A stretch of 64,000 nucleotides of DNA. Source: an uncultured Candidatus Saccharimonas sp. Lineage in GTDB: Bacteria > Patescibacteriota > Saccharimonadia > Saccharimonadales > AQU-01. Where the stretch lies: the NCBI GenBank assembly GCA_943358095.1, contig CALRGT010000002.1:32782-96781 (forward strand), read 5' to 3'. The stretch's first letter is position 1. Every line of letters starts with the position of its first letter. Positions 3,417 to 58,000 of the stretch are shown piece by piece. The notes below the pieces were generated by a model. That model was not told the DNA's origin and did no database searches. It saw only the letters and a list, made by a program, of their open reading frames with translations. The position numbers were made by a program, and so were the translations under genes.

Positions 3417-3495
3417 CCTCATCTTGTTACTTTTGATTAGCTTAAGACATTAAACCATTAGCAGTTTATTGTTCTTTTTTAAAAAGAATGAACTT

Positions 3496-3988
3496 TGCCA
3501 CTTTTGTCTCGGACAATAGCTTACCGTTACTTTTGTTTCGGCAAAAGTAACACAAAACCGAGGGGCGATGTCTACTTCTTGATACAGTCTCCAGTCAAGC
3601 CTGACAACTGCCTGCGGAACTAGGCCCGCTCTATTATTCTCCGGAGGGCGGGCCGTCAAACAGTCCTCGGCTGATAGTTGTCAGTTTGACGAGACATGTA
3701 TCAGGAAGCAGCCAAGCCCCATCTAAGACCATGGAATGATTGCTAAAGACAATCATAATTTTATATATTGCCCGCCTCCAGCGGGCATCCATGGTCTTTG
3801 GTGGGGCTTGGCGACTACCCGAAATAGATTCCGACAAGAGCACAACAACACTACCTGCCGAGGACTGTCTGAAGATGCGAATGCATCAAGTTCCGCAGGC
3901 TGTGTTGTGCTCCTTGTTCGGAAGCTATATCGAGTTGGCGACACCGCCCCTCGGTTTTGCGCCATCTTTTGCCGAGACAAAAGTGGCA
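3496..3988. repeat. 493-bp imperfect inverted repeat forming a rod-like multi-helix structure (candidate structured RNA; strand unknown)
   Basis: Long-range complementary blocks: 3496-3512/3972-3988 (17/17), 3553-3572/3940-3959 (19/20), 3610-3621/3889-3900 (12/12), 3660-3671/3857-3868 (12/12), 3711-3735/3788-3812 (23/25). Apical hairpins lie at 3736-3756 and 3770-3786. Only short mutually overlapping ORFs occur here. Confidence 0.85.
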
Positions 3989-4004
3989 TAAGAAACAATT
4001 TTTA

Positions 4005-5531
4005 TTAAAAGGTAACAGTACGTTTTCGGTATTGCAAAGCCTCCGCCATATGAGCCGAAGTAATAAACTCAGAAGATTCTAAATCTGCAATAGTCCGAGC
4101 CACCTTGATAGACTTCATATAATGCCGAGCCGAAATCTGCAGCCGCGAAGCCGCCTGGTTAAGCAGTTCCTGTGCCTCAGAAGAGAGTAGGCCGATCTTT
4201 TTAATATCTTGATTGGTCATATCGCTGTTAGTCTTGGTAGTAGTCTGGAATCGTTCAGTCTGCCGAGCTCGAGCTAAAACCACCCGATCGGCAATTTCGG
4301 CGCTGGATTCTTGGTCGTCACTGGTTAGTAACTTGGCGTGAACCACCTCATCAACATCAACATACATATCAATTCGATCGATAATTGGCCCAGATAATTT
4401 GCGTTGGTAATTAGTTATTTGGTGAGGCATGCAGCTACATTCATGGCTGGTGCCGTAGTATCCGCAGGGGCAGGGGTTGGCGGTTGCGACTAGGATAAAA
4501 TGTGCCGGAAAGATAAGGCTATCACGTGCTCGCGCCACACTTATTATTTTGTCTTCGAGCGGCTGTCGTAGAGCTTCAATCGTGGCTCTACCAAATTCTG
4601 GCAACTCATCCAAGAATAATATTCCTCTGTGGGCTAAACTAATTTCGCCAGGGCGAGGATATTGACCACCTCCAATTATAGATATATCGCTCGCACTATG
4701 ATGCGGCGAACGAAATGGTCTGCTGTGAATAATTACATCGTATTGTTTGCTAGCTAGGCTGTGAAGATGAGTTACTTCGAGCATTTCTTCTGGGCTGAGC
4801 GCAGGCAGGATGGTCGGCAAGGCTTTGGCTAGCATGCTTTTACCGGTGCCTGGCGGTCCGTTTAGCAGAACATTGTGTGAGCCGGCGGCAGCTATTTCGA
4901 GCGCACGCTTGGCTCTGTGTTGGCCCACAACATACTTAAAGTCGCTGCTATTACTATCTCCCGGCGACGATTTAGCACGTCCGGTGGTTCCGTTATTGGT
5001 GGCGATAGATTTTAAGCTGACAGTATTATTTAGGTGTAGATAAATATCACGGATATTCTGAACGGGGATAATGGTTATATTTGGCACTAGTAGAGCTTGG
5101 CGAGCGTTACCGTAGGGAATATAAAATATATCAAAGCCCAGCTCACGCCCGGCCAGTAATTTGCCGATAATGCCTCGGACTGGGCGAACGCTACCGTTAA
5201 GTGCGAGCTCGCCAATCATTAAAGTATTGTCGCCAAGTGCTTGGCTGGTCTGGCTGCCGGCGATTAGGATTGCTGTAGCTATAGCTAGATCAAAACTCGT
5301 GCTGTCTTTTGGAATATCTGCAGGAGCTAGATTAACAGTAATTCGCTTCTTTGGTAATTTAAGTTCAGCATTAGTAAATGCGCCGCGCAACCTCTCCTTG
5401 GCTTCATCGACAGCCTTATTAGCCAGTCCGACGATGATAATGCTTGGTAGGCCGTTAGATAAGTGGCATTCCACATCTATTACTACTCCAGTTGAACCCG
5501 ATTCAATAACGCTTTGTACGGTCGCACTCAT
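4005..5531 (-). CDS. comM: Mg-chelatase-like ATPase, YifB/ComM family
   Basis: The 508-aa ORF has an N-terminal Lon-protease-like fold region, Walker A LLNGPPGTGKSMLAK, Walker B ILFLDELPEF and the C-terminal ChlI-like region (PCPCGYYG...). This is the typical YifB/ComM architecture. Confidence 0.85.
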   Translation of the reverse strand: MSATVQSVIESGSTGVVIDVECHLSNGLPSIIIVGLANKAVDEAKERLRGAFTNAELKLPKKRITVNLAPADIPKDSTSFDLAIATAILIAGSQTSQALGDNTLMIGELALNGSVRPVRGIIGKLLAGRELGFDIFYIPYGNARQALLVPNITIIPVQNIRDIYLHLNNTVSLKSIATNNGTTGRAKSSPGDSNSSDFKYVVGQHRAKRALEIAAAGSHNVLLNGPPGTGKSMLAKALPTILPALSPEEMLEVTHLHSLASKQYDVIIHSRPFRSPHHSASDISIIGGGQYPRPGEISLAHRGILFLDELPEFGRATIEALRQPLEDKIISVARARDSLIFPAHFILVATANPCPCGYYGTSHECSCMPHQITNYQRKLSGPIIDRIDMYVDVDEVVHAKLLTSDDQESSAEIADRVVLARARQTERFQTTTKTNSDMTNQDIKKIGLLSSEAQELLNQAASRLQISARHYMKSIKVARTIADLESSEFITSAHMAEALQYRKRTVTF

Positions 5532-15314: not shown

Positions 15315-15441
15315 CAATTTGTCATTGAACATTTGGCATTTGGCATTTATTTGTCATTGAACATTGATCAGACGGCTGGTCTTTTGGAGCTAAATGGTAA
15401 ATGCGAAATAAATGATAAATGTAGAATGGTAAATGGTAAAT
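15315..15441. repeat. CATTT/CAATG-rich hairpin repeat element, copy E1 (gyrB-gyrA spacer)
   Basis: The left arm is caatttgtcattgaacatttggcatttggcatttatttgtcattgaacattg. The right arm is taaatggtaaatgcgaaataaatgataaatgtagaatggtaaatggtaaat, its imperfect reverse complement. It shares blocks with E2-E5 (catttattt / aaataaatg, aatggtaaatggtaaat). Confidence 0.8.
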
Positions 15442-18039
15442 AACGCTATGGATGATGAAATTAAAGACGAATTAGTACCAATTGAAGCTAACGATGTAGA
15501 AGTCGTAGAGTCTGGTCGTTACGAAGACGACGACGTATTAGACACCAGTCACTCAAGAGTTGTTGAACGCCGTAAGGTTGAAGATGTCATGGAAGACAGC
15601 TACTTGCGTTACTCTATGAGCGTTATCGTAGCGCGTGCTTTACCAGACGTTCGTGACGGTCTAAAGCCGGTCCATCGTCGTATTTTGTATGTCATGAACC
15701 GAATGGGCATTACGCCTGGTGGCAAGACTGTTAAGAGTGCTCAGATCGTCGGTGAAGTTATGGGTAAATATCACCCGCACGGCGACAGCGCGATTTATGA
15801 ATCAATGGTCCGTATGGCTCAGCCTTGGGCTATGCGCTACATGCTAGTTAATGGTCAGGGTAACTTCGGTTCTATGGACGGCGACCCAGCGGCTGCCTAT
15901 CGATATACTGAAGCTAAAATGACATCTCATGCCGAAGCTATGCTTGCCGATATCGAAAAAGAAACAGTGCCTTTCCGCGACAACTACGATGGTACTCGTC
16001 AAGAACCAGAGGTCTTGCCAGCTAAATTGCCAAACCTTCTACTAAACGGTCAAGTTGGTATCGCCGTAGGTATGGCCACCAACATCCCACCGCACAACTT
16101 GAACGAAATAGTCGACGCGATAATAACTATTATCGACAAGCCTGATGCTACATTAGATGATTTGCTAGTGCATGTTAAGGGTCCTGACTTCCCAACAGGC
16201 GGTATTGTCTATGGTCGCGACTCTATTCGAACTGCTTTTGCTACCGGTCGTGGTGGTGTGGTGGTTCGTGGTGTGGCTAATATCGAAGAGAACGCCAAGG
16301 GTCGCCATCAGATTATAATCAGCGAAATTCCTTACGCCCTCAACAAAGAGAGTTTGATTCTTAAGATCGCCGATCTAGTCCACGAAAAGAAGATTGTTGG
16401 CATTAGTGATATTCGCGACGAAACCGCTCGTGGTGCTGTCCGTATGGTGATCGACCTCAAGAAGGACGCCTACCCGAAGAAGATCCTAAACCAACTCTAT
16501 AAATTGACTCCATTACAGACCAGCTTCCACTACAATATGTTGGCGCTAGTTGATGGTATCCAGCCCCGCGTGCTTGGCTTGCAAGACATTCTTCAGGAAT
16601 ACCTAAAGCACCGGCAAGTTGTTGTACGTCGTCGCACCGAGTACGAACTTCGCAAGGCGCAGGAGCGCGCTCACATCCTAGAAGGCCTCAAGATAGCCCT
16701 TGACCACATTGATGAAGTCATTAAGACGATTCGTGCCAGCAAGAGCGCAGACGAAGCCCAGACGAGTTTGATAGCTAAGTTTAAGCTGTCAGAGATTCAG
16801 GCAAAAGCTATTTTGGCGATGCAGCTACGCACGCTAACTGGTCTTGAGCGTCAAAAAATCGAAGACGAATTAGCCGAATTATTGAAGATTATTGCAAAAT
16901 TAGAAGGTATTTTGGCTAGCGAGCAAGAAATTCTAAAAATCATCAAGACTGAATTAATCGAAATGAAGAAGCAGTTTGGTGACGAACGACGCACTAAGAT
17001 TGTTGATAGTGAACTTGGTAAATTGAGCGACGAAGATTTGATCCCTGACGAACAAGTTGCTGTAACTCTTACATCAGCTAACTACATCAAGCGTAGTCCA
17101 TTGGCCGAATATAAGCGCCAAGGTCGCGGTGGCAAGGGTAGGCGAGGAATGGCTACGAGAGAAGAAGACGTTATCGAGCACGTTGTTAACGCCTCTACTC
17201 ACGACTATATCTTGTTCTTCACGAACCGTGGCCGCGTTTTCCGTCTCAAGACATACGAAGTACCAGCCGTCGGCCTAAACGCCAAAGGTGTTGCACTAGT
17301 TAACTTGCTACAGTTACAGCCTGAAGAGCGTGTCAGCTCGATCATCAATGTCAGCAAGGGCGACAAAGACGGTTACTTGTTTATGTGTACTGTCCGAGGC
17401 GTTGTCAAGAAGACTCCATTTGAGCAATACAAGAATGTACGCAACTCTGGCTTGATAGCCATAAATCTAGACGACAAAGACGAATTGCGATGGATTAGAA
17501 TGACTTCCGGAACAGACGAAATCGTCATCAGCACCTCACTTGGCCAGGCTATTCGCTTCCAAGAAAAGGACGCTCGTCCAATGGGTCGAGTCTCACGAGG
17601 TGTCCGTGGTATCCGTTTGCGAGCAGGCGACGAAGTTATCGGCATGGACACTGTCAAAAAAGACTCCAGCATTTTCGTAATCAGCAAGCACGGTTACGGC
17701 AAGCGCACCAAGATTGACCAGTTTACTCCACACGCTCGCGGCGGTGTTGGTATCCGTTCAGCCATCGTCAACACCAAAACAGGCAACCTGATTGGCGTTA
17801 AGACCCTCTCAGCCGACGATACCGAAGAAGTGATCATTATCTCGCAGCAGGGCCAAACTATCCGCCTAGGGCTTAAGAACATCCCACAGCTAGGTCGCGC
17901 CACGCAAGGTGTTCGCATCATGCGCATTAACGAGAATGATGAAGTCGTATCGCTAGCATTAGTCGACAAAACTGAAGAAATTGATACTGACGAAGTAGCC
18001 GAAATTACTCCACCAAAATCAGACTCAGCCAAAAAATAA
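15433..18039 (+). CDS. gyrA: DNA gyrase subunit A (start ambiguous: ATG 15433 or ATG 15448)
   Basis: The 868-aa ORF contains [45 protein letters not shown], and C-terminal beta-pinwheel repeats. ATG 15433 lies inside repeat E1, so ATG 15448 (MDDEIKDE...) is equally plausible. Confidence 0.95.
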
Positions 18040-18309: not shown

Positions 18310-19870
<1,561 letters not shown>

Positions 19871-20124: not shown

Positions 20125-20176
20125 AAATACATTAACAATTAGTGAGTCACGATTGATGGGCGATTAGCTCAGCTGG
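20125..20176 (+). repeat. 52-bp direct repeat, copy 1 (leader plus first 19 nt of tRNA-Ile); copy 2 at 20249-20300
   Basis: The sequence aaatacattaacaattagtgagtcacgattgatgggcgattagctcagctgg occurs identically at 20125-20176 and 20249-20300. Copy 1 continues into non-tRNA sequence, leaving a truncated tRNA-Ile 5' fragment at 20158-20176. Confidence 0.9.
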
Positions 20177-20281
20177 CGCAGCTCGCTGCAAAATTAAGTA
20201 ATTGCGCGATTCGCGCTCTAGCGCTGAGCTACAAATTCAGTAAGCGGTAAATACATTAACAATTAGTGAGTCACGATTGAT

Positions 20282-20358
20282 GGGCGATTAGCTCAGCTGG
20301 TTAGAGCGCGTCACTGATAATGACGAGGTCGGAGGTTCGAGTCCCTCATCGCCCACCA
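20282..20358 (+). tRNA. tRNA-Ile (GAU), CCA encoded
   Basis: The acceptor stem pairs GGGCGAT with ATCGCCC. It has the D-arm AGCTCAGCTGGTTAGAGC, anticodon loop CTGATAA, T-arm GGAGGTTCGAGTCCCTC, and ends ACCA. Confidence 0.95.
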
Positions 20359-20957: not shown

Positions 20958-21843
20958 TGTTTAGCTACTTGAGTTTAGGCACGAGGCAGGGAAAAAAGCA
21001 GTGAAAGCTTCCAGCGTAAACTCAAGCATCCGAGATCATTTCAGTCTAATGTATGGGTGTGGTGAGAGTTTTGTAACTTAACAATTTAACCGACAAAATA
21101 AGTTTTTTAGAATCGTTTATGAATTCGTGATTGGCACGAAGGAGTAGACGAACATTAATGACAAACGGCTATTGGTTAATACCAATAACTAGTCAATTGC
21201 ACGAACAGCGATGATCGAGGCTTCGGCCAAAGTCATTGCTAACGTAAAAAGTTACATAAGCGCACACAAGGAATGCCTTGACGTAAGATACCGATGAAGG
21301 ACGTAGTAGACTGCGAAAAGCTTCGGGGAGCTGTCTAACAAGCTTTGAACCGAAGATATCCGAATGGGGAAACCTATGGCGAGTAATGTCGTCATGCACT
21401 TGTCTGAATATATAGGACGAGAGAGCGGTAACCAGGGGAACTGAAACATCTTAGTACCCTGAGGAAGAGAAAGTAAACAACGATTCCGGTAGTAGTGGCG
21501 AGCGAACCCGGAAGAGCCCAAACCTTTTAAGTTTCCGTCTAGCAATAGATGGATAAGTTGGTAGACGAATATTTAAAAGGGGTTGTGACACACAAACAAT
21601 CCAAGCAGACTGTTTGAGCAATCGAACAATCTGTTTGGCCCGCATGACCTACCATTGTCATGCATAAGGTAAAAAATTTGCGAAGCGAGCAGAAGGATCT
21701 GGAAAGTTCCGCCAAAGACGGTGAAAGCCCGGTATGCCAAGTTTCGCAAACCTTATTATTTGTGTTGTCGAGTAGGACGGGGCACGTGAAATCCTGTCTG
21801 AATCTGGGTCGACCACGACCCAAGGCTAAATATATCTTACGAT

Positions 21844-21874
<31 letters not shown>

Positions 21875-23099
21875 TAAAAGAACCCCGGAAGGGGAGTGAA
21901 ATAGATCCTGAAATTGTGTGCGTACAAGGAGTAGGAGCCGGCTTGTCCGGTGACTGCGTGCTTTTTGTAGAACGATCCAGCGAGTTAATTGTCATGGCAA
22001 GCTTAAGCCATTTGGCGGAGGCGCAGTGAAAGCGAGGCTTAATTAGGCCGACTTCAGTCATGATGATTAGACCCGAAACCGAGTGACCTAACCATGGGCA
22101 GGATGAAGCGCAGGTAAAACTGCGTGGAGGTCCGAACCGTAGCGAATTGCAACACGCCCGGATGACCTGTGGTTAGTGGTGAAATGCTAATCGAACTCGG
22201 AGATAGCTGGTTCTCCTCGAAATAGCTTTAGGGCTAGCGTCGTACGGTAACAGATAGGGGTAGAGCTCTGTTTCGGACTGGGGGTCGTAAGACTACCCAC
22301 CCTTGACAAACTACGAATACTATCTGCGGAACTACGGCAGTCAGAACGGCGGGGCTAAGCTCGCCGCTCGAAAGGGAAACAGCCCAGATCGCCAGCTAAG
22401 GTCCCTAAATATACACTCAGTGGGAAACGAGGTGAGATTTCTCGAACAACTAGGATGTTGGCTTAGAAGCAGCCATTCATTTAAAGAGTGCGTAACAGCT
22501 CACTAGTCAAGAGATCTTGCGCGGAAAATGTAACGGGGCTCAAGTGTATTACCGAAGCTGCGAACTCGATCATACCTTCGGGTATGGTTGATTGGTAGAG
22601 GAGCGTTGATATTGCATCGAAGTCGAACTGCGAGGTTCGGTGGAGCGGTATCAAGTGAGAATGCTGGAATGAGTAACCATAAGGCAGGTGAGAATCCTGC
22701 CCGCCGAAAGAGCAAGGTTTCCTGGGCCACGATAATCGTCCCAGGGTTAGTCGGTCCTAAGTCGAGGCGAGTAGCGTAGACGATGGACAACGGGTTAATA
22801 TTCCCGTACTAGCTTTGTATTGTTTGGAAGTGCGCGGCATATTAGTAGGAGCGGGTTCATGGTTATACCCGTCTAAGCCACAGAAATAGTGGTTAACGAG
22901 AGATCTTAATTGATTGATTCCTGTGAAAGCGCTGACCAGAAAAGCTTCCAAGCTTATGTACATAGTTATCCGTACCGCAAACCGACACAGGTGCTCAGGT
23001 CGAGTAGACCAAAGGCGTACGAGTGATTCTTCGTTAAGGAACTCGGCAATACAGCGACCGTAACTTCGGGATAAGGTCCGCCCCGTCACAGTGTTTATC

Positions 23100-23257
23100 A
23101 CTGTGACTTGTAACGCCAGTTTTCTTTTTAAAACGGAAACAACAGAAACCGAGATTAGTTTTTAACTTCTGATCTTTGGCCTGTATAAACGAGCAATTTT
23201 TGAGAATTAGAAAGAAAGCTGACCTCTATAAGCACGTAACGTGGTAGTTACTGTGAC
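23100..23257 (+). mobile_element. 150-nt insertion in a 23S hairpin, bounded by an 8-bp direct repeat ACTGTGAC (23100-23107 and 23250-23257)
   Basis: Deleting 23108-23257 joins gccccgtcacagtg-tttat-cactgtgac to ggggc. That gives a perfect 14-bp stem with a 5-nt loop. The insert has no ORF and no similarity to the CATTT family. Confidence 0.5.
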
Positions 23258-23709
23258 GGGGCCGCAGCTAAAGAACCCATGCAACTGTTTACCAAAAACA
23301 CAGGTCTGTGCTAACACGAAAGTGGATGTATACGGGCTGACGCCTGCCCGGTGCTGGAAGGTTAAGGGGATGGCTTTACGGTCTGAACTGAAGCCCCAGT
23401 GAACGGCGGCGGTAACTATAACCGTCCTAAGGTAGCGAAATTCCTTGTCAGGTAAGTTCTGACCTGCACGAATGGCGTAATGATATGGGTACTGTCTCAA
23501 CGAAGAGCTCGGTGAAAGTGCATTGACGGTAAAGATGCCGTCTGTCCGCAGCAGGACGAAAAGACCCCGTGCAGCTTTACTACAGCTTGACATTGAACCC
23601 GGTTGTAACATGTGTAGGATAGGTGGGAGACTTTGAGATCTCGACGCTAGTCGAGAAGGAGTCATCAGTGAAATACCACCCTTGTTATAATCTTGTTCTC
23701 ACGGGAACC

Positions 23710-23887
23710 TCAATTTGCGAAGCAAATTGAATTTAGCATTTAACATTGATGCATTGACGCATTAATTTAACATTGACCATTTTTCATTGAAGCTCCAGGG
23801 CTACAATGACCAAATGTCACATGGATAAATTAATGACAAAATGATAAATGGTAAATGGTAAATTCTGACATTTGATTCTCAAATTCA
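23710..23887 (+). repeat. CATTT/CAATG-rich hairpin repeat element, copy E2, inserted in the apical loop of a 23S domain-V-proximal hairpin
   Basis: The 178-nt insert is closed by GGGAACC (23703-23709) pairing with GGTTCCC (23888-23894). The left arm atttagcatttaacattgatgcattgacgcattaatttaacattgaccatttttcattgaagct is about 85 percent identical to intergenic copy E3. E. coli has only a short loop at the equivalent site. Confidence 0.8.
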
Positions 23888-24173
23888 GGTTCCCGGACCG
23901 TGTCTGGTGGGTAGTTTAACTGGGGCGGTTGCCTCCTAAAGAGTAGCGGAGGCGTTCAAAGGTTGGCTAGGTTCGGATGGAAATCGAATCGATAGTGCAT
24001 ACGCATAAGCCAGCTTGACTGTGAGACCTACAAGTCAAACAGGCACGAAAGTGGGAGTAAGTTTTCCGCTGTCCATACATTCGTATAAGAGAGTGGTATC
24101 GGCAGCGCTATCGGATAAAAGTTACGCCGGGGATAACAGGCTTATCGCGCCCAATAGTTCACATAGACGGCGC

Positions 24174-24209
<36 letters not shown>

Positions 24210-24260
24210 AGGGGGAGCACCTTCCAAGGGTCCGGCTGTTCGCCGGTTAAAGTGGTACGT

Positions 24261-24294
<34 letters not shown>

Positions 24295-24789
24295 TTATAT
24301 CCGCTGTGGACGATAGGAAATTTGAGAGAATTTGCCCCTAGTACGAGAGGACCGGGGTGAACGCACCGCTGGTGTACCAGTTGTTCTACCAAGAGCACCG
24401 CTGGGTAGCTAAGTGCGGACCAGATAAGCGCTGAAAGCATATTAAGCGCGAAACTGACCTCAAGATTAGATTTCCCTATGAGGGCCGTGAAAGACGATCA
24501 CGTTGATAGGCGCAAGGTGGAAGTACAGTAATGTATGGAGCCGAAGCGTACTAATCGCCCCATCGACTTTTTACGACTATGAGAGATGATCCGTGCCATT
24601 TATGGGACGGGGACTCTCTCGTAGGTAGTGCGTTGACTAGTTATTGGTGAGAATCACCACATAGACAACGTTTGTCATATTTCTTCTGAACTTATTTGTT
24701 GGCACCATACCATTGGCATCGAACCAAGGTTTCAAAGGCCCACCGCCAGATCGTATATATCTGCGCAAAGTCGCCTTTCAAGCCTTTAA

Positions 24790-24903
24790 TCGGTGCCCAT
24801 GGCGCGAGGGAGACACCTGTTCCCATTCCGAACACAGCAGTTAAGCCTCGCAGCGGTTACAATACTTGGGCCATCAAGCCCTGGGAAAATAGCACGGTGC
24901 CGA
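24790..24903 (+). rRNA. rrf: 5S ribosomal RNA
   Basis: The sequence tcggtgcccatggcgcgagggagacacctgttcccattccgaacacagcagttaagcctcgcag...gggaaaatagcacggtgccga has a conserved 5S core and a terminal helix. Confidence 0.93.
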
Positions 24904-24914
24904 ATTATAGAACA

Positions 24915-25477: not shown

Positions 25478-25505
25478 CCGCTTCTCTTAACGAGAGGCGG
25501 TTTTT
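25478..25505 (+). terminator. Intrinsic terminator after the KGG-protein gene
   Basis: CCGCTTCTC (25478-25486) pairs with GAGAGGCGG (25492-25500), followed by TTTTT. Confidence 0.75.
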
Positions 25506-25597
25506 ATTTATCATTTAACATTGACGCATTAACTTAACATTTATCATTTTTCATTGTAGCTTCAATGACCAAATGACAAATGCTCAATGTTAAATTG
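25506..25597. repeat. CATTT/CAATG-rich hairpin repeat element, copy E3 (short right arm)
   Basis: The sequence is atttatcatttaacattgacgcattaacttaacatttatcatttttcattgtagcttcaatgaccaaatgacaaatgctcaatgttaaatt. The apex cattg-tagctt-caatg is identical to E4. The stop codon of the minus-strand gene (25590-25592) lies in its right arm. Confidence 0.8.
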
Positions 25598-26054
25598 CTT
25601 TTGCGAGTTTTCGGTAGGGGCGACACATTCGTGAGCTAGAAACATTCCAATTTGTCCCGCAATTAAAGCAGGCATAGGTTCTGCTGTTGGTTTGTAGGCT
25701 GCAATTCGTGCAGGTTGGGCAGGTACTTCGCTGATAAAGCCAATCGCGGTAAGTGTCTAGGCAATCCTGAATGTGGTCTGGGTCGATTGTATAATTGAGT
25801 GATTCGGCAAGCTGTTTGGCTTTTTCCCAGGCCGACACCTCGAGTGTTAGTAGCTGAAAGTCAGAGCTGTAGTCATTGTGTTCAAGCAGGGCATGACCAA
25901 CTTCGTGTAATAGCGACCAAGGGGCTACGACGTCGTCATCTGGTGATATTTTATAGATGACATGATTAGTTTTTGGCGACCACGAAAAGGTAGCTCCGGG
26001 TTTGAAATTAATGAAGGGGTAGCTGGCCTTGAGTTTTATTAGTAACTTTTCCAT
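25590..26054 (-). CDS. Putative zinc metallopeptidase (HEXXH, ImmA/IrrE-like) with C-terminal Cys4 zinc ribbon
   Basis: The 154-aa ORF has WSLLHEVGHALLEH (HEXXH) and CPTCTNC...CFNCG. Confidence 0.5.
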   Translation of the reverse strand: MEKLLIKLKASYPFINFKPGATFSWSPKTNHVIYKISPDDDVVAPWSLLHEVGHALLEHNDYSSDFQLLTLEVSAWEKAKQLAESLNYTIDPDHIQDCLDTYRDWLYQRSTCPTCTNCSLQTNSRTYACFNCGTNWNVSSSRMCRPYRKLAKAI

Positions 26055-34657: not shown

Positions 34658-34704
34658 TTGGTAGAGTATAGCCTATGACAGGGGTTGTGGTCCAGACCGT
34701 AAAG

Positions 34705-34830
34705 CTATTTATCATTTAGCATTTGTCATTTTGACATTTATTTGTCAGGTGGCATTTGGTCATTGTAGCTTCAATGTAAAATGGTCAATGTCAAAATAAA
34801 TGATCAATGTTAAATGACAAATGATCAATC
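34705..34830. repeat. CATTT/CAATG-rich hairpin repeat element, copy E4 (priA-def spacer)
   Basis: The left arm is atttatcatttagcatttgtcattttgacatttatttgtcaggtggcatttggtcattg. The apex is tagctt. The right arm is caatgtaaaatggtcaatgtcaaaataaatgatcaatgttaaatgacaaatgatcaatc. The priA stop codon (34829-34831) overlaps its end. Confidence 0.85.
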
Positions 34831-40671: not shown

Positions 40672-40811
40672 TACAGCTTCAATTTCACATTTTACATTGA
40701 CCATTTGTCATTTATTTGGACATTTAACATTGATCATTGGCGCTACACCTCAATGACAAATGACCAAATGACTAAATAAATGTTCAATGCTAAATGACCA
40801 AATGCTAAATT
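40672..40811. repeat. CATTT/CAATG-rich hairpin repeat element, copy E5 (ftsA-ftsZ spacer)
   Basis: The left arm is tttcacattttacattgaccatttgtcatttatttggacatttaacattgatcattg. The apex is gcgctacacct. The right arm is caatgacaaatgaccaaatgactaaataaatgttcaatgctaaatgaccaaatgctaaat. It starts 2 nt after the ftsA stop. Confidence 0.85.
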
Positions 40812-40861
40812 TATCTATTATTTTGCTCAATCAAGATTATCGCTTATCGTAAAGTTATTCA

Positions 40862-52070: not shown

Positions 52071-55000
52071 ATGCAAGATTCAACTAACACACAGCCAAAT
52101 CTCACCCCTGTTGTTACCCCTAATACGGGCTCTATTGAAGGCATAACTCCGGTACAAAATATACAAAATTCACCAGTTTATCCTGAACAAAAAATAGATA
52201 ACACCGTTGTTTCTTCGCTGACTTCAGTTGCTAGTCCTGATGTGCAGGTTCAAGAAGCCTTTATGGATCAGAGTTCGCTTGAGAATTCCGGTCTACTTGA
52301 CGCTGTAGACACTGGATCACTGATCAACCAAGATAATTACGCTACACCGAAGGCAAAGCGTCGTTCTGCCAAAACTCCTTTCATCATCACTGGTCTAACT
52401 CTTGTGGTAGCTCTCATCATTGCTGGCCTTGGTAGCTATTTTGCCAAGCGCACTACTGTCGCCGATAAGAGTGTCTCACAGCAGGTTGTTGAGCAGTCAG
52501 TCGACTCCGCACTCCTACGTGTTGACCCTCTAAGCCTGCTTTCTCCTGTTGGTGTCATAGGTCAACAACTTCTTGTGAATGGTAATGCCGACTTCACAGG
52601 TAACATAACCGCCAATAACTTCTTTGGTAACGGTTCTGGTATTACCGACCTAAAGGCCGCTAACTGTGATGATTGTGTCATGCTTCAGCCAACCACTCCT
52701 GGCTTGGCTCAGGTTGGAGGCATCAATGTTGCGGGTAATGGTTTGTTCGGCAAACTAGGGGTGGGCACTCAGAATCCTGCCTATACCGTTGATGTTTTGG
52801 GTGACATAAACGCCAGCTCAAGTCTTAAAGTTAACGGTGTTACTGTTTGTACTGTTGCTGGTTGTGGAGCTACAAGTGGTCTAACCTCTGCTGTTACTCA
52901 ACTAGACGGACTTGTCGGCAATCTGCTAATAAGCAATACATCTGGTATTGGCACAACGATTACCATCAACGACGCCTCCACAACAGGTAAGGGAATAGCT
53001 CAGTTTAGCGCTACTAACTTCTTAGTTTCTGGCGGTACAGTCAACACTATCCAAGACATTACAAACGCTTCTATCCCAACTTTTGGTGGAATTATCTTGA
53101 ACGGTAACGTCACTCTCGGTACTACTGGTACTGTCTTTAGCAATAACCTGAGTCAGACTAGTGCTGGCAATGCTGTTGTTGTTAACGCCGCTGCCGATCA
53201 AATCACTTTCCAGGCTAATGGCCGAACTTTCCAGTTCCCGAGCACTGGGGTAGCTAATCAAACCATCTGTACTACTGGTATTACCTGTGTAGCAGGTGGT
53301 GGTCAGGCGATTTTGCTGGCACCCGGCAGCGCCCAAACAGACACCTCTGTAGATGTCTCCATATTCGTAAACGATACTGGGGGCGGTAATCTTTTACAAC
53401 TCCAGACTGCTGGAGCCGATAAGTTTGTCGTCGCTAACAACGGCGACACTTCTATAAATGCCATCCTTAAGGTTAATACCATTACACCTACAGCATCCTT
53501 TACAGTTGGCTCTAGTACTCAGACTATTACTCTTCAGGGTGATGCCAGCTCGACCTTTAATGCAACTGGCGGTGGTTTTACTTCAAGTCTTGGTTTTACT
53601 TCGCCAACCGCTAATAGGACAATTACCATCCCTAACGCTAGTGGTACAGTTGCGGTCAGCGCCAGTGGTAATATTAGCCTTAGCGCCAGCGGTAATGTAA
53701 CTTTCACCGGCCTATTACCGATCGGGAGCGGCGGTACGAACTCTTCAACTGCCGGAGGTGCTCTCACCAATCTAGGTGCTGCCGCTAGCGGTGCTAACTC
53801 CGACATCACTAGCACATCAGCATTAGCTACCGCTACTGGACTCAACACCATCACTCCGACTGGTGCTTTGACTGTTGGTGCTGTATCTCAGTCCATAACT
53901 CTACAGGGTTCTACTGCCACATTGACCAGTAATGGTGCAGGCAATGACATTACGCTAACTTCGGCCGACGCCATTATTTTGTCAGCTGTCGGTAATGTTA
54001 CATTCTCTGGATTTAATTGTACGACCTTTTCAAACGGCGGTACGCTGACGACTGACGCCAGCGGCAATGTAACTTGTTCTAACGATGATGGTGGAGCTAC
54101 TCCAACTCTGCAAACTACCTATAACGCTTCTACTAATCCAGAACTAACCGTCGACGCTACTAGAGGTGCTTTGACTGTTCGAGACAACTCTACTCCAATC
54201 GCCGCTAATCTGTTAGAAGTTCAAAATAACAGTGGTAGCACGACTTACTTTAGGGTTGACGCTAACGGCATTGAAACTACAGGCACGACCACCAGTACCG
54301 GCAATATTAACTCTAGTGGCGGCGTAATCCAGACTAATAGCGTGACTCGTATCGATAACTCCGGCAACTTAACTAACATTGGTACAATTAACAGCCAGAC
54401 TATCTCATCATCAGCCAACTTTACTGGCACAGTATCTGTCGCTACTAGCCTAACATCACCACTGTTAAGCAGTGTCGGAGCGCTAACTATTACGCCAGGA
54501 GGTGCTTTCGTAGTTGGCGCTACCAGCCAAAGCCTATCGCTTCAGGGTAACGGTTCTACTACTCTTAGCTCCACTAGCGGTGGCTTTACTAACACCCTAG
54601 GATTTACTACACCAGCTGGCTCCAACAAGTCCATCACCATCCCTAACGCTAGTGGTACAGTTGCGGTCAGCGCCAGTGGTAATATTAGTCTCAGCGTTAG
54701 CGGAGATATTACCTTCACCGGCCTATTACCGATCGCTAACGGCGGCACGAACTCTTCTACTGCCGGAGGTGCTCTCACCAATCTAGGTGCTGCTGCCAGC
54801 GGTGCAAACTCTGACATAATTAGCACATCAGCATTAGCCACCGCTACTGGACTCAACACCATCACTCCGACTGGTGCTTTGACTGTTGGCGCTACTAGCC
54901 AGGCCTTTACATTGCAGGGTAATGCTAGCTCGATAATTACTGCCACAGGTGGTGGGTTTTCTACAACAGTTGGCTTTTCTGGAACGCCTACCGGTGGAGT

Positions 55001-58000
55001 AGCTTACAATTTTGATCGTTCTGCTCTAGCTGGAACTTATACAATCTGTACAACAGTAGGTAACTGTGTGGGTGCTGGCGGTGGTGTTACTACTGCCGGA
55101 GGAACGGCAGGAAAACTAGCTAAGTTCACTGCAGGCAGCGTCATAGCTGATTCAATCATTAGTGAGTCTGGCGTTATTGTTACTGTTGCTGGTGAAGCAG
55201 TTCTTCAAGGCTCCGGCGGTTTAACTCTAGGTCAAGCATCAACAGCCACAGGTAAAATAGTCTTTAACAACATCGGTAACGCAAACACCATCACTCTTCA
55301 AAGTGGCAATCCTGGCTCAAATGTGACCTTAACTCTTCCAATCACTGCTGGAGCTAACGGTGATTGTATAACCAGTAACGGTTCAGGAGTTCTAAGCTTT
55401 ACTGCCTGTACCGGCGGACCAGGTGGCGGTGTTACTAGCGTAGACGGCCTAATAGGAGTTTTGACTATTGCTAATTCGAGTGGTTCTCTAAGTACGATAA
55501 CTATCGATGACGCCACAACCTCAAGCAAGGGTATAGCCCAGTTCAACAGCACAAACTTCACAGCCAGTAGCGGTACCATCAACACTATCCAGAACATCGA
55601 CTCAACAGCTACTCCTAGCTTTGCTGGTCTAAGCGTTACGACTGCAACAGGGCTAACATTAGGTACTGGAACGGCTGCAGGTAAATTAGTTGTACGTGAC
55701 GGTATCTCGGCATTTGGTAGCACCTTCCAGACAACCACTCTTACTGGCAATCAAGTGATTACCATTCCTAACGCTGGTGGTACCTTAGCAGTCAGCGCCA
55801 GCGGTAACATTAGTCTCAGCGCCAGCGGAGATATTACCTTCACAGGCCTATTACCGATCGCTAATGGCGGTACGAACTCTTCTACTGCCGGAGGTGCACT
55901 CACCAATCTAGGTGCTGCCGCAAGCGGTGCTAACTCCGACATCACTAGCCTTAGTGGCCTTACCACTGCGCTATCTGTTGCTCAAGGTGGCACAGCATTG
56001 GCCACAATTCCAACAAATGGTCAGTTATTGATAGGTAACGGCACTAACTACACACTGGCTGGACTCAGCGGTACCGGTATAACTGTTACTAACGGAGCCG
56101 GCAGTATTGGCTTGGCAACTATTTATGGCTCAGGCTCGAACACGGCCGCACAAGGCAACGTAACCTTTACTTGCCCTAGTGGAACAGGCAACTTATCTGG
56201 TACCGGTAACGCCATAACTATCGGTAGCGGTGGAACATGTAACAGCTTAACTGTAGTAAATAATCCAACATTCTCTGGACTTGTAACCGGCCAAGCTGGA
56301 CTAGTTGTAACAAACGGTGGATCGCTATCTACACAAAAGGGAACTGACTATGCCACGACTGGCGTGACGAGCGACGTAAACTTGGGTGCTGCTAGTCTTT
56401 ATCGACTCACTGGTATAAGTGCTCAAACCATCACCGGCTTTAGTGGTGGCGTCGATGGCCGTATCCTGACATTAATAAACGCTGGTTCAGCCACTGCCGT
56501 ATTGAGCAACTTAACCACCTCAGCTGCTGGTAATCAGATTAGTACTGGTTCTGGTAGTGATGTAAATCTACCAATTGGTAGCTCTATTTCGTTGATTTAT
56601 GATTCGGCCGCTAGTCTATGGCGCGTCAATGGTAGTCCTGCAGGCAGTGGCTTGTCTGGGGTTACTAACGACACTAACGTTACTGGAGTGTTAGCTTCTA
56701 ATGTACTAACACTTGGCTGGACAGGCACATTAGCGGTTGGGCGTGGCGGCCTAGGCGTCGGCAGCCTTACTAGTAACGGAATTCTCTACGGTAATGGTAG
56801 TAGCGCTGTTCAGGCCACTGCATCGGCTGCAAACAGTATTTTAATAACCGACGGTAGTAGTGTGCCAGCGCTTAGTCAGACATTACCTACTTTAGTGCAA
56901 GGTAATATAACTTCAACGGGCGCACTAAACTCAGGATCAATTACCTCTGGCTTCGGAGTTATAGATAACGGCTCCGACACAATTACTACAACCGGTACAA
57001 TTGGTACCGCCGGCACCACTACCTTCACCGGTAATACCGCAACATTCTCTGGTGGTGTTATAGCACCAAGTCTAGAGCGAGCCACGGCTGGCACCTTAAC
57101 TATAGGCAGCACATCCAACACTACTGCCATAAGTGAGGGTCGTACTGGAATTACAACGACCAATGCTGGTGCGCTTACAGTTTCGGAAGCCTTTAGTGCG
57201 AACCTCGGCGCAACAGTAACAGGCGGAGCAGTTACGCTGAACTCAACAGGCTCGTCTAACTTCAACACAGACATTAATACTGGCACATCTACAGGAGCTA
57301 TAAACATTGGTAACTCATTATCTGGAGCAATTAGTCTTCAGAGTAGTTCTTATGTGTCGGTGGGTGCTAGTGACACAACAGGTACGCTGTTGATACTTGA
57401 TACCAAGACAGACGCATCTGATCCTAGCGGTTCAAACGGCGGTATGTACTACAACTCTAGCCTAGGCAAGTTCCGTTGTTATGAGAACAGTGTTTGGAAA
57501 GACTGCGGCACATCAACTCCAACTAGCTTGCAAGGAGCATACACTCAGTCAGCCGGCGCCAGCCCATCCATAACCCTGACCAATGCCTTCGGAGGAATTA
57601 ATATCGTTGACGGCACAACTCCAGTAGCCGGTAACCTATTCTCCATCAAGAATAACGCCGCTACCGCCACTTACTTCGGCATAACCTCTACAGGTTTATT
57701 GATCCAAGATGCTTCTGCTACTAACGCTCTAGCGTTTGATTCGTCGACTAAAACCTTAAAGGTCTACGGTACGAGTGGCGCTGGATATGCTGGTGTTAGC
57801 TATACTGATGCTACCAGTACGGCTATTTTTGCCGCTTCTTCTGGCGGCGTATCACAACTTGGTAACGGTAACGGTAATGTTACTATTTCGCTTGGTGGTG
57901 CAACTGACGCGCTTAACTTCGACAAGACATATACACCTATTGCCGCCTACAGTTCGTCTGATTTCAATGTTATCCGCAACCTGACTGGTACATCCTTCGC

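Follow-up and report, generated by a model that had tools for sequence, protein, structure and literature searches.

Results

An extended hairpin in helix 79 of a 23S rRNA gene

We analyzed a 64-kb stretch of Saccharibacteria DNA (the window) whose 23S rRNA gene, at 21245-24575, was aligned end to end by the Rfam LSU model. The gene is 3331 nt long, compared to the 2925 positions of the model (RF02541), and contains a 178-nt insert at 23710-23887 (173 nt in the Rfam alignment, in a terminal loop at model positions ~2228-2250). Alignment with E. coli 23S rRNA placed the insert at ~2205-2215, in the hairpin immediately 3′ of H78. We take this hairpin to be helix 79 (H79), a numbering anchored by a published table (PMC2441807). 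The site is organized as follows (L numbers designate relatives):

21245-24575, + strand: 23S rRNA gene, host of the insert (Rfam RF02541, 2570 bits, model positions 1-2925)
23703-23709, + strand: H79 closing stem, 5′ strand GGGAACC (Rfam alignment; compensatory changes in L008, L028, L055, and L086)
23710-23721, + strand: 5′ outer shell, TCAATTTGCGAA, continuing GCAAATTGA (rRNA-specific; unmatched by the intergenic elements)
23722-23864, + strand: core, a member of the CATTKAN/AATG hairpin family with a 7-8-nt period (nhmmer, periodicity)
23865-23887, + strand: 3′ outer shell, CTGACATTTGATTCTCAAATTCA, pairing with the 5′ shell (MFE and consensus structures)
23888-23894, + strand: H79 closing stem, 3′ strand GGTTCCC (Rfam alignment and consensus structure)

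As the original prediction stated, the insert replaces the loop of a hairpin closed by GGGAACC/GGTTCCC, on which the Rfam alignment agrees, and it has no ORF of note, since those touching it encode only 35 and 21 amino acids. Placed on the 23S secondary structure, it occupies the apical loop of H79. It is AT-rich, with a GC content of 0.30 compared to 0.50 for the 23S core, and is predicted to fold into a single hairpin of ~85 bp (ΔG −70.7, z −8.9). The predicted duplex is imperfect, with many 1-nt bulges and mismatches and a longest perfect run of ~10 bp.

Ribosomal RNA operons from metagenome assemblies are often chimeric, and the 16S rRNA of one relative (L002) is only 95% identical to that of the window, yet its gyrA is identical; both observations would fit an insert that is an assembly artefact. 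However, all nine independent assemblies that contain an identical 459-nt stretch of 23S upstream of the site carry the insert, and two of them match the window without a difference (100% identity) for 3.9-6.5 kb. A contig of ENA ERZ27280309 likewise has 100% identity to the window. This cross-assembly evidence disposes of misassembly, which the original prediction had named as a danger to its claim. We also considered a self-splicing intron. Group I and II intron covariance models from Rfam, run over the 23S gene, gave no match and no intron core structure, and the fold of the insert is a plain hairpin without an ORF. Together with orthologues of the insert in four other species, the nine assemblies refute the artefact and intron readings, to which we assign next to no probability.

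H79 length varies in steps across Saccharibacteria

Among ~97-99 Saccharibacteria species, the H79 interval was graded from 42 to 219 nt, with steps at 42, ~72, ~88, and up to 219 nt. H79 was expanded in ~60 of 99 species, and ~39 of 99 had a 42-44-nt ground state; the insert is therefore not the universal expansion that would have been at odds with the original prediction. A neighbor-joining tree of ~1 kb of conserved 23S was poorly resolved and, in some taxa, distorted by insertions, and nearest-neighbor identities on 695 gap-free 23S columns were used in its place. By this measure, the nearest 23S neighbors of the window have other H79 states, the ground state included. The cores were patchy and lineage-specific. 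The interval is 158 nt in L024 and 42 nt in L078, with flanks that are 98.6% identical, and L016 and L059, with 99.6% identical flanks, have H79 inserts that differ, stems included.

Shell and core of the window insert were orthologous and in register in L008, L086 (closed genome CP064992.1), L028, and L055. The 16S rRNA of L008 is only ~91% identical to that of the window, and the two inserts are 77.5% identical over 160 nt. CATT-type H79 intervals measured 213-219 nt in five species, with a mean column identity of 78%.

The insert is layered and its core is periodic

The H79 insert is a composite of the rRNA stem, an outer shell common to other Saccharibacteria, and a core that belongs to the hairpin family. 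Homology to the family is confined to ~23722-23864 (the family profile matched 23731-23864 in nhmmer, E = 6e-28), and the outer ~12-20 nt on each side form an rRNA-specific shell that is widespread in Saccharibacteria. Its 3′ side is conserved in L008, L086, L028, L055, and L016. As read from these alignments, the insert is not a simple loop insertion but is nested on a shell that also occurs without a core (L036, 74-nt interval) or with other cores (L016, L024, and L071).

The arms of the core are degenerate arrays of 7-8-nt units, CATTKAN in the 5′ arm and a complementary AATG unit in the 3′ arm. Both tandem repeat finding (TRF) and autocorrelation detected the 7-8-nt period in both arms of all family copies, with a lag-7 autocorrelation of 0.57 compared to 0.32 for shuffles. 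Double changes were found in 17 of 69 pairs of the H79 hairpin, a count reached in 0 of 500 shuffles; slid registers gave 3-5. At the level of sequence, then, compensatory changes maintain pairing along the whole hairpin.

The core has relatives between protein-coding genes

The family has five members in the window, namely the H79 core and four intergenic hairpins. A motif-density scan of the 64 kb picked exactly five loci (9-14 motifs per 120 nt, compared to a background mean of 0.5). With the insert as query, nhmmer returned 34707-34822 (−, E = 1.3e-13), 25492-25586 (+, E = 8e-9), 40675-40811 (E = 5e-5), and 15315-15446 (+, E = 6e-4). These values, far beyond chance, uphold the claimed homology between insert and intergenic hairpins. 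The arm-by-arm resemblance that had been described was also recovered: the left arm matches the element at 25.5 kb (81% over 62 nt and 89% over 28 nt), and the right arm matches that at 15.4 kb in the stretch ending AATGGTAAATGGTAAAT (75% over 36 nt). No known RNA family in Rfam matched the intergenic elements at E ≤ 1. The elements are:

15315-15442, + strand: E_A, filling the gyrB-gyrA intercistronic spacer (profile E = 1.2e-25; flanking genes by Pfam)
25502-25599, + strand: E_B, 3′ of a KGG-motif gene (family profile E = 7.9e-17)
34703-34829, − strand: E_C, filling the priA-def spacer (nhmmer profile E = 1.7e-30; colinear alignment with the insert)
40680-40812, + strand: E_D, in the ftsA-ftsZ spacer (profile E = 1.6e-26; FtsA and FtsZ by Pfam)

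E_B follows a terminator-like hairpin of the KGG-motif gene and adjoins the stop codon of a convergent gene, and E_D lies upstream of a conserved promoter-like segment. E_C is the nearest relative of the H79 core in the window (75-77% identity), and pairwise identities across the family are flat, at 61-77%. The E_C flank (34671-34708) matches the 23S gene (23370-23407) over 38 nt, but no better than expected by chance (E = 0.028 in the window), and this match was rejected. An orientation bias suggested by the CATT arm on the 5′ side of all copies was also dropped, because the reverse complement of a perfect hairpin is that same hairpin and the position of that arm is uninformative. Orientation is readable only from asymmetries, as differences in nhmmer strand score, and only three copies are informative, too few for a conclusion.

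The arms are periodic arrays, the units at one and the same slot differ between genomes, the identity matrix is flat, and any two arrays of the same unit align significantly. All of this could be expected if nothing had been copied between sites and a slippage-prone 7-nt unit had arisen independently at each, through a genome-wide mutational bias and compensatory slippage on the opposite arm. However, the insert and E_C have colinear, non-periodic features in common (GACCATTTT-CATTGAAGCT…ACAATGACCAAATG), a 23-nt exact run links the insert to an intergenic variant in a relative, the unit is found at only five loci in 64 kb, and a family without periodicity has the same multi-site distribution (both described below). 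We consider independent origin quite improbable.

Intergenic slots turn over

Judging from the relatives, slots gain, lose, and swap hairpins both between close relatives and within species. L003 has an empty gyrB-gyrA slot, and in L007 and L008 this slot is filled by unrelated hairpins. The ftsA-ftsZ slot is variably occupied in L187-L190, being empty in L190. A metagenome scan around priA recovered only two close relatives, because the PriA protein evolves fast. In L109, the priA-def slot holds a different, inverted allele between flanks that are ~96.5% identical; this variant aligns with the insert from GCAAATTGA at 23722, with the 23-nt exact run noted above.

A model with one family per genome was rejected. 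In L008, the rRNA cores are CATT-type and the gyrB-gyrA hairpin is of an ATAGTC/GACTATC type; in the L007/L187 genome, the hairpins at gyrB-gyrA and ftsA-ftsZ differ. Neither target-site duplications nor defined termini were evident at the junctions of filled and empty sites or of the L109 replacement, where hairpin symmetry obscures the ends. Sister strains have an insertion after the 5S gene with a 221-aa ORF that we considered as a candidate mobilizer; this ORF had no Pfam match and so provides no candidate mobilizing enzyme.

Related hairpins occupy other rRNA sites in relatives

In relatives, the CATT family is also found at the tips of other rRNA helices, at H45 in L008 and at H63 in L055. 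Core types found at H79 recur elsewhere in the same genome: at H63 in L055 and L054, at H25 and in the 23S-5S spacer in L024, and at H45 (in opposite orientation) and in the 23S-5S spacer in L064. The L064 core family is non-periodic, yet is likewise distributed over several sites. The downstream copies in L024 and L064 had at one stage been taken for intergenic elements among protein genes, an assignment we rejected on their location in the 23S-5S spacer. A 164-nt hairpin in domain III is present in some strains and absent from others, with flanks that are 99.8-100% identical.

Transfer may have run in either direction

The original prediction held that a repeat of mRNA spacers had entered an rRNA helix. 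That the family resides in an rRNA helix stands, and entry into new rRNA helices is seen in the relatives with copies at H45 and H63. The direction and recency that the claim implied were not supported, as the H79 copy is orthologous in four other species and those intergenic copies that can be dated are younger or unstable. Since the whole insert is orthologous in these species, including L008 with its distant 16S rRNA, none of the datable intergenic copies can be older than it. With the rRNA copy as the oldest datable member of the family, transfer from rRNA to spacers is equally possible.

The H79 insert might then be a long-lived source, and the intergenic copies might derive, for example, from copies of its DNA or of its excised RNA. 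The H79 copy is common to five species, and close relatives lack the intergenic copies or have others in their place; the L109 variant reaches into GCAAATTGA, at the border of shell and core; and the identity of the window core to E_C (75%) is on a par with that to its L008 orthologue (77%). Against this, the shell proper is in no intergenic copy, no signature of reverse transcriptase or integration was found, and the presence of the family at new rRNA sites in relatives implies that movement into rRNA occurs too. We regard rRNA as the source as possible, if on the unlikely side.

Excision or retention of the H79 hairpin

The two fates named by the original prediction, a tolerated expansion segment or an excised intervening sequence (IVS), are the right alternatives. 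We lean toward excision. As with the classical IVSs at H25 and H45, the ~85-bp duplex would be cut out by a double-strand-specific RNase of the RNase III type without religation, and the 23S rRNA would then consist of two pieces, of ~2.45 kb and ~0.7 kb. By the same logic, the intercistronic copies would act as mRNA processing or stability hairpins. The insert is an AT-rich, ORF-less sequence of 100-200 nt that replaces a terminal loop, features that fit the published definition of an IVS (PMC8708148, PMC4990558), and its sister copies are found at H25 and H45, both classical IVS sites, as well as in a spacer whose removal is part of normal processing. Tsurumaki et al. suggest the same fate for short CPR insertions (PMC11270868). 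However, the conservation of the insert between the window and L008 (77.5% over 160 nt) equals that of two other 23S expansions, in a setting where most spacers are unalignable, and the interval has stayed within 213-219 nt in five species, although the arms are prone to slippage. Conservation and held length suggest a constraint beyond that on "any dsRNA," as would be expected of a retained segment. No RNase III gene was located among 10 window ORFs or, by tblastn with an E. coli query, in 1.7 Mb of fetched loci, a sample that is uninformative on this point.

Were the hairpin retained, mature 23S rRNA would carry it as a surface rod of ~230 Å at the tip of H79, the site of eukaryotic ES31L. 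With the expansions in the H18 area and at H63, this would give a bacterial ribosome with expansion segments of more than 100 nt. Beyond the points just made on conservation and length, retention would account for the graded size series on a conserved base, for compensatory changes along the entire helix, for a duplex so often broken that its longest perfect run is ~10 bp, and for arms that are "cryptically simple" and slippage-type, as in eukaryotic expansion segments. On the other side, the nearest relatives lack any extension, which makes it dispensable, and the same families occur at H25, H45, and the 23S-5S spacer. All experimentally studied bacterial helix-tip inserts of such size and composition are excised (PMC8708148, PMC4990558), and Penev et al. 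(2020) state that expansion segments of more than 100 nt had not been seen in Bacteria (PMC7594248). Our literature search yielded neither a ribosome structure from Saccharibacteria nor an account of fragmented rRNA in them. We give retention a substantial chance, somewhat short of even.

Discussion

Our data are best accommodated, in our judgment by slightly better than even chances, by a model in which the insert is an H79 tip hairpin of the IVS or expansion-segment kind, built in three layers and drawn from a genome-wide pool of copyable modules. On the universal H79 stem would sit the outer shell and, within it, a ~140-nt core that is one copy of a self-complementary, AT-rich module. Such modules may be copied non-homologously between sites at the DNA level, whether by a transposition-like mechanism or by ectopic conversion, and would persist only at places where a long hairpin does no harm, namely at the tips of surface rRNA helices, in rRNA spacers, and in mRNA spacers. 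Replication slippage, compensated by changes on the opposite arm, would account for the growth and turnover of their arms, and entire H79 cassettes (stem, shell, and core) could pass between genomes through homologous recombination within the conserved rRNA sequences on either side.

Several observations count against copying at the DNA level. No target-site duplication or defined terminus was evident at junctions whose ends the hairpin symmetry obscures, no transposase was found in the 64-kb window, and the flat identities reveal neither the direction of transfer nor recent copying. A single family in both rRNA and protein-gene spacers was seen only in the genome of the window. Also, the periodic hairpins that fill a given intergenic slot are unrelated from one genome to another, so part of the pattern could reflect turnover in situ or selection for any hairpin. 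We think it unlikely that the modules form a previously undescribed class of non-autonomous periodic hairpins that copy themselves into hairpin-tolerant sites and are the direct source of the insertions at H25, H45, H63, H79, and 16S helix 6.

[quoted passage not shown] Like them, it is an AT-rich extended stem-loop of 100-200 nt that replaces the terminal loop of a surface helix, is sporadic among close relatives, and, as is true of most IVSs, has no ORF; its sister copies in relatives lie at H25 and H45 (PMC4990558, PMC8708148). Unlike them, the window copy is at H79, the IVS sites listed in our sources being H9, H25, and H45; its arms have a 7-8-nt period; and its core is homologous to dispersed intercistronic hairpins of the same genome. 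Reviews call the origin of IVSs unclear, and the idea that they are transposon remnants dates from 1990 (PMC4990558); our literature search found no link between IVSs and dispersed repeats.

The insert also resembles eukaryotic and archaeal expansion segments. It grows to variable length at a helix tip, on a conserved base and at a fixed site, in the helix of ES31L. Simple motifs on one arm face complementary motifs on the other, compensatory change keeps the pairing, and different expansion sites within one genome have motifs in common. Hancock and Dover reportedly proposed a model of "cryptic simplicity" and "compensatory slippage" for expansion segments. The concept is cited in PMC1888808 and PMC3290570. 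The insert differs in that its host is a bacterium and in that copies exist in mRNA spacers; its place in mature rRNA is putative.

The family as a whole has features of bacterial dispersed hairpin repeats and MITEs. Such elements include REP/BIME, Correia/NEMIS, RUP, ERIC, and the Rickettsia palindromic elements. Its members are likewise short, ORF-less, and self-complementary, with five copies in 64 kb; they lie just after stop codons and between co-transcribed genes; and filled and empty sites are found among relatives (gyrB-gyrA is empty in L003 and ftsA-ftsZ in L190). In contrast to MITEs and REPs, no target-site duplication or discrete terminal repeat was evident at the self-complementary ends, and no cognate transposase was identified in the 64-kb window; the arms are internally periodic; and one copy lies inside a functional rRNA helix. 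Among eukaryotes, the microsporidian Nosema bombycis has MITEs within its rDNA (cited in PMC10946416).

We place the insert in the same class as the short, uncharacterized rRNA insertions of Saccharibacteria surveyed by Tsurumaki et al. (2024) (PMC11270868). In that survey, insertions of at least 100 bp were present in 35 of 35 Saccharibacteria 23S genes, and 64 of 66 rRNA insertions were at most 250 bp and contained neither an intron nor a homing endonuclease (PMC11270868). Positions are given there in figures only, without structure, family analysis, or a link to intergenic repeats.

How bacterial 23S IVSs, and rRNA expansion segments in general, originate is a long-standing question, and the H79 case provides a concrete lead on the source of bacterial rRNA insertions. 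In one genome, the same hairpin module is found at the tip of an rRNA helix and also in spacers of co-transcribed housekeeping genes, and in relatives, genome-specific modules are repeated at several classical insertion sites and slots change their occupants within a species. Should the modules prove to be the self-copying class considered above, an outcome we think unlikely, they would provide concrete evidence, for the first time, that dispersed genomic repeats seed bacterial IVSs or expansion segments. If the hairpins are retained, bacterial ribosomes would also have expansion segments of more than 100 nt, at sites homologous to eukaryotic ES7, ES15, ES27, and ES31. The question can now be tested in Saccharibacteria, a phylum with cultured members (PMC11270868). 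Variable hairpins of this kind will affect the length of Saccharibacteria 23S and 16S rRNA, primer sites, and measures of rRNA integrity, and the exchange of cassettes may blur rRNA-based phylogenies.

Results

A hairpin insert in the 23S rRNA gene

A full rRNA operon lies in the window. The names on GyrA proteins identical to the window's assign the genome to Candidatus Saccharibacteria.

18310-19869: 16S rRNA
16S-23S spacer: tRNA-Ile and tRNA-Ala
21245-24575: 23S rRNA (3331 nt vs a 2925-position model)
23703-23709 and 23888-23894: GGGAACC and GGTTCCC, closing stem of the insert-bearing hairpin
24789-24905: 5S rRNA

As the original prediction held, the insert replaces the loop of the hairpin closed by this stem. 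In the Rfam alignment, the terminal loop of this hairpin (model positions ~2228-2250) is 173 nt longer than in the model; aligned to E. coli 23S rRNA, the site falls at about 2205-2215. We take this hairpin to be helix 79 (H79), the site of the eukaryotic expansion segment ES31L. H78 spans 2127-2160 in the table of PMC2441807, and the insert-bearing hairpin is the next one. In the insert, ORFs do not exceed 35 aa, in agreement with the claim that it is non-coding, and GC content is 0.30 vs 0.50 in the remaining 23S. With the rRNA stem the insert is predicted to fold into a single imperfect hairpin of ~85 bp, with a ΔG of −70.7 kcal/mol and a z-score of −8.9.

The operon has other enlargements. 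Two more 23S expansions exceed 100 nt and lie outside the repeat family described below (21527-21687 and 23083-23259; one near E. coli 276-293 in the H18 area, the other in H63), and 16S helix 6 (~18378-18490) is enlarged by about 100 nt. The 16S-23S spacer contains an exact 52-nt direct repeat (20125-20176 and 20249-20300). Since the second copy overlaps the 5′-most 19 nt of tRNA-Ile, the first is a partial duplicate of the tRNA upstream region and 5′ end.

The core belongs to a dispersed hairpin family

Used as an nhmmer query, the insert matched four further loci in the window, with E-values whose significance is inflated by the periodic sequence:

34707-34822, minus strand: priA-def spacer, E 1.3e-13
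25492-25586, plus strand: 3′ end of a KGG-motif gene, E 8e-9
40675-40811, both strands: ftsA-ftsZ spacer, E 5e-5
15315-15446, plus strand: gyrB-gyrA spacer, E 6e-4

A crude motif-density scan picked the same five loci, and no others, out of 64 kb. All five are hairpins in which the 5′ arm is a degenerate 7-8-nt CATTKAN array and the 3′ arm consists of complementary units (CATT-type). Lag-7 autocorrelation of the arms was 0.57 vs 0.32 in shuffles, and TRF found period-7/8 arrays in both arms of every copy (5/5). Because the similarity is colinear and extends to non-periodic features, whole elements are homologous, at least for the insert and the priA-def and KGG-gene copies. The predicted homology to intergenic hairpins holds for a core at about 23722-23864; the flanking ~12-20 nt at either end do not resemble the family. 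The four intergenic copies fill spacers directly past the stop codons of housekeeping genes, and matched no Rfam family even at E ≤ 1.

The insert is real and old

All relatives compared here are metagenome assemblies. A spurious ORF that gene callers annotate in 23S just upstream of H79 led us to nine independent ones. The insert was present in nine of nine, two of them 100% identical to the window, which answers the concern about misassembly. A homologous insert occupies the same site in L008, a 1.05-Mb contig (77.5% identity over 160 nt; GyrA 82% and 16S ~91% identical), and in L086, L028, and L055. The five inserts are in register (intervals 213-219 nt, mean column identity 78%). Pairing has been preserved by compensatory change: of the 69 pairs in the consensus hairpin, itself predicted from the alignment on which it was scored, 17 are kept by double-sided change. 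Across 500 shuffles the observed values were never reached, and sliding the register by 1-3 columns left 3-5 such pairs. Identity of L008 to the window is 87-95% in core rRNA, and spacers are mostly unalignable; the H79 insert and the 21527-21687 and 23083-23259 expansions each show 70-80% identity for most of their length. We conclude that the H79 insert is real and old.

L002 (12878-14433) and the window encode the same GyrA, yet their 16S sequences are just 95% identical, reflecting either a chimeric assembly of L002 at the rRNA operon or rRNA recombination. In L003 (14025-22643; GyrA 89% identical), the 7 kb past the 16S contain no 23S, so the rRNA genes of this relative are possibly not linked. 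In L024 (1472-1754), Rfam places both spacer tRNAs on the other strand from the 16S and 23S that flank them.

H79 is built in layers and varies among close relatives

A search of one genome per species for a conserved pattern 3′ of H79 recovered 100 loci, nearly all from Saccharibacteria. The extension is not universal.

H79 interval lengths
42-44 nt (ground state): 38 species
69-78 nt: 24 species
87-92 nt: 9 species
105-107 nt: 2 species
131-219 nt: 24 species

The loop motif CCGTNATCCGG is present in 35/35 of the 42-nt intervals and CCGTTATCCGG in 34/35. Every long version is predicted to fold into a single long hairpin. The extended H79 has three layers: stem, shell, and core. The outer shell CAAATTGCRGAGCAA…TTGRTCYTCAAATT is shared: it has no core in L036, surrounds a CATT-type core in the window, L008, L086, and L055, and surrounds other cores, several ~7-nt periodic, in L016 (TTTTCAA/TTGGAAA), L024 (TAGTTTT/CTAACNN), and L071. 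The cores of L017 and L059 are periodic too, on a different base.

Distribution is patchy. Carriers of CATT-type inserts are not mutual nearest relatives on 695 gap-free conserved 23S columns, a comparison that, like our trees, uses short conserved rRNA stretches. L024 has 158 nt at H79 vs 42 nt in L078, with flanks 98.6% identical; L016 and L059 have flanks 99.6% identical and different inserts, stem included. In a helix-tip survey, the commonest expansion sites were H63 (57/76 expanded) and H79 (60/99), and occupancy was sporadic at H25, H45, and one site in domain III.

Cores recur within genomes and slots turn over

We searched each long H79 core against its own locus, mostly just 8 kb around the operon. 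In five genomes the core type recurs:

L008: H45 (E. coli 1168-1180), plus a weaker related insert in 16S helix 6
L055 and L054: H63
L024: H25 (534-558) and the 23S-5S spacer
L064: H45, opposite orientation, and the 23S-5S spacer; a non-periodic family

The window genome alone showed a single family in an rRNA helix as well as between protein-coding genes, most others being sampled for 8 kb around the operon.

Intergenic slots also change contents. A CATT-type hairpin fills the gyrB-gyrA slot of the window and of L002; L007 has a GCAAGCA/GCTTACC hairpin there, L008 an ATAGTC/GACTATC hairpin, and L003 nothing, its genes abutting. At ftsA-ftsZ, L188 and L189 have unrelated hairpins, L187 a CCATAAT array, and L190 nothing. 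Within the species, L110 shares the window's priA-def allele; in L109 the entire spacer is swapped for an inverted, ~70% similar variant between flanks ~96.5% identical. This variant aligns to the H79 insert from GCAAATTGA on, including a 23-nt exact run. Separately, the ftsZ-nrdR spacer of L187 (3812-4403) is 592 nt, with a giant predicted hairpin (ΔG −190), vs 154 nt in the window.

At a site in 23S domain III immediately 5′ of E. coli 1598, four sister strains (L181, L183, L184, and L186) carry a perfect 164-nt hairpin (ΔG −79) between 99.8-100% identical flanks, vs a 2-nt loop in the window (22953-22956). The hairpin recurs at this site in four other species (L024:4263-4427, L107:6530-6693, L106, and L064), so the window lineage either lost it precisely or exchanged it by recombination. 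This hairpin is not a CATT-family member.

Other repeats and ORFs were noted. Nested inverted repeats of ~540 nt (3465-4009; I2, I3, I6, and I25) have no Rfam family match. In sister strains L180-L184 and L186, a ~1-kb insertion directly past 5S (window 24944/24949) holds related sequence (224 nt at 95%, 470 nt at 85%) and a 221-aa ORF with no Pfam match; a 2.3-kb insertion in L109 (6960-9306; window 37164/37207) holds related sequence too. It looks like a mobile element. ORF 1078-1788, adjoining the RNase P RNA gene (1833-2202), is an uncommon fusion of pterin-4a-carbinolamine dehydratase and RNase H/RVT_3 domains. A 2343-aa ORF (52071-59102) has ~1-kb internal repeats and is followed by at least 13 copies of a 153-nt-period repeat (60995-63670), open-ended at the window edge.

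Discussion

As a helix-tip intervening sequence (IVS) or expansion segment, the insert is an already known type of object. Short insertions lacking introns or ORFs are catalogued, uncharacterised, in Saccharibacteria rRNA genes: insertions ≥100 bp occur in 35/35 23S genes, and 64/66 insertions are ≤250 bp (PMC11270868). The IVS literature surveyed gives H9, H25, and H45 as sites and calls the origin of IVSs unclear; here the site is H79. Our literature search found no description of this insertion site and no report connecting a family of dispersed intergenic repeats with IVSs or with expansions in bacteria. The link between the rRNA insert and the repeat family, for which the original prediction knew of no earlier description, appears to be new, as do the periodic arms and the multi-site, genome-specific hairpin families.

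We lean towards excision of the insert from the RNA by an RNase III-type enzyme. Its size, composition, and architecture resemble classical IVSs (PMC8708148, PMC4990558, PMC11270868), its distribution is sporadic, sister copies occupy H25 and H45, and others lie in a spacer that is discarded in any case. In favour of retention in the RNA are the constrained length and sequence and the way sizes form a graded series on a conserved base.

At the DNA level, hairpin modules may be copied between sites by a non-homologous process, with copies surviving only where a long hairpin does no harm. Arms would evolve by slippage and compensatory change. Because the stem changes along with the insert, whole H79 cassettes would also be exchanged between genomes through homologous recombination in the conserved flanks.
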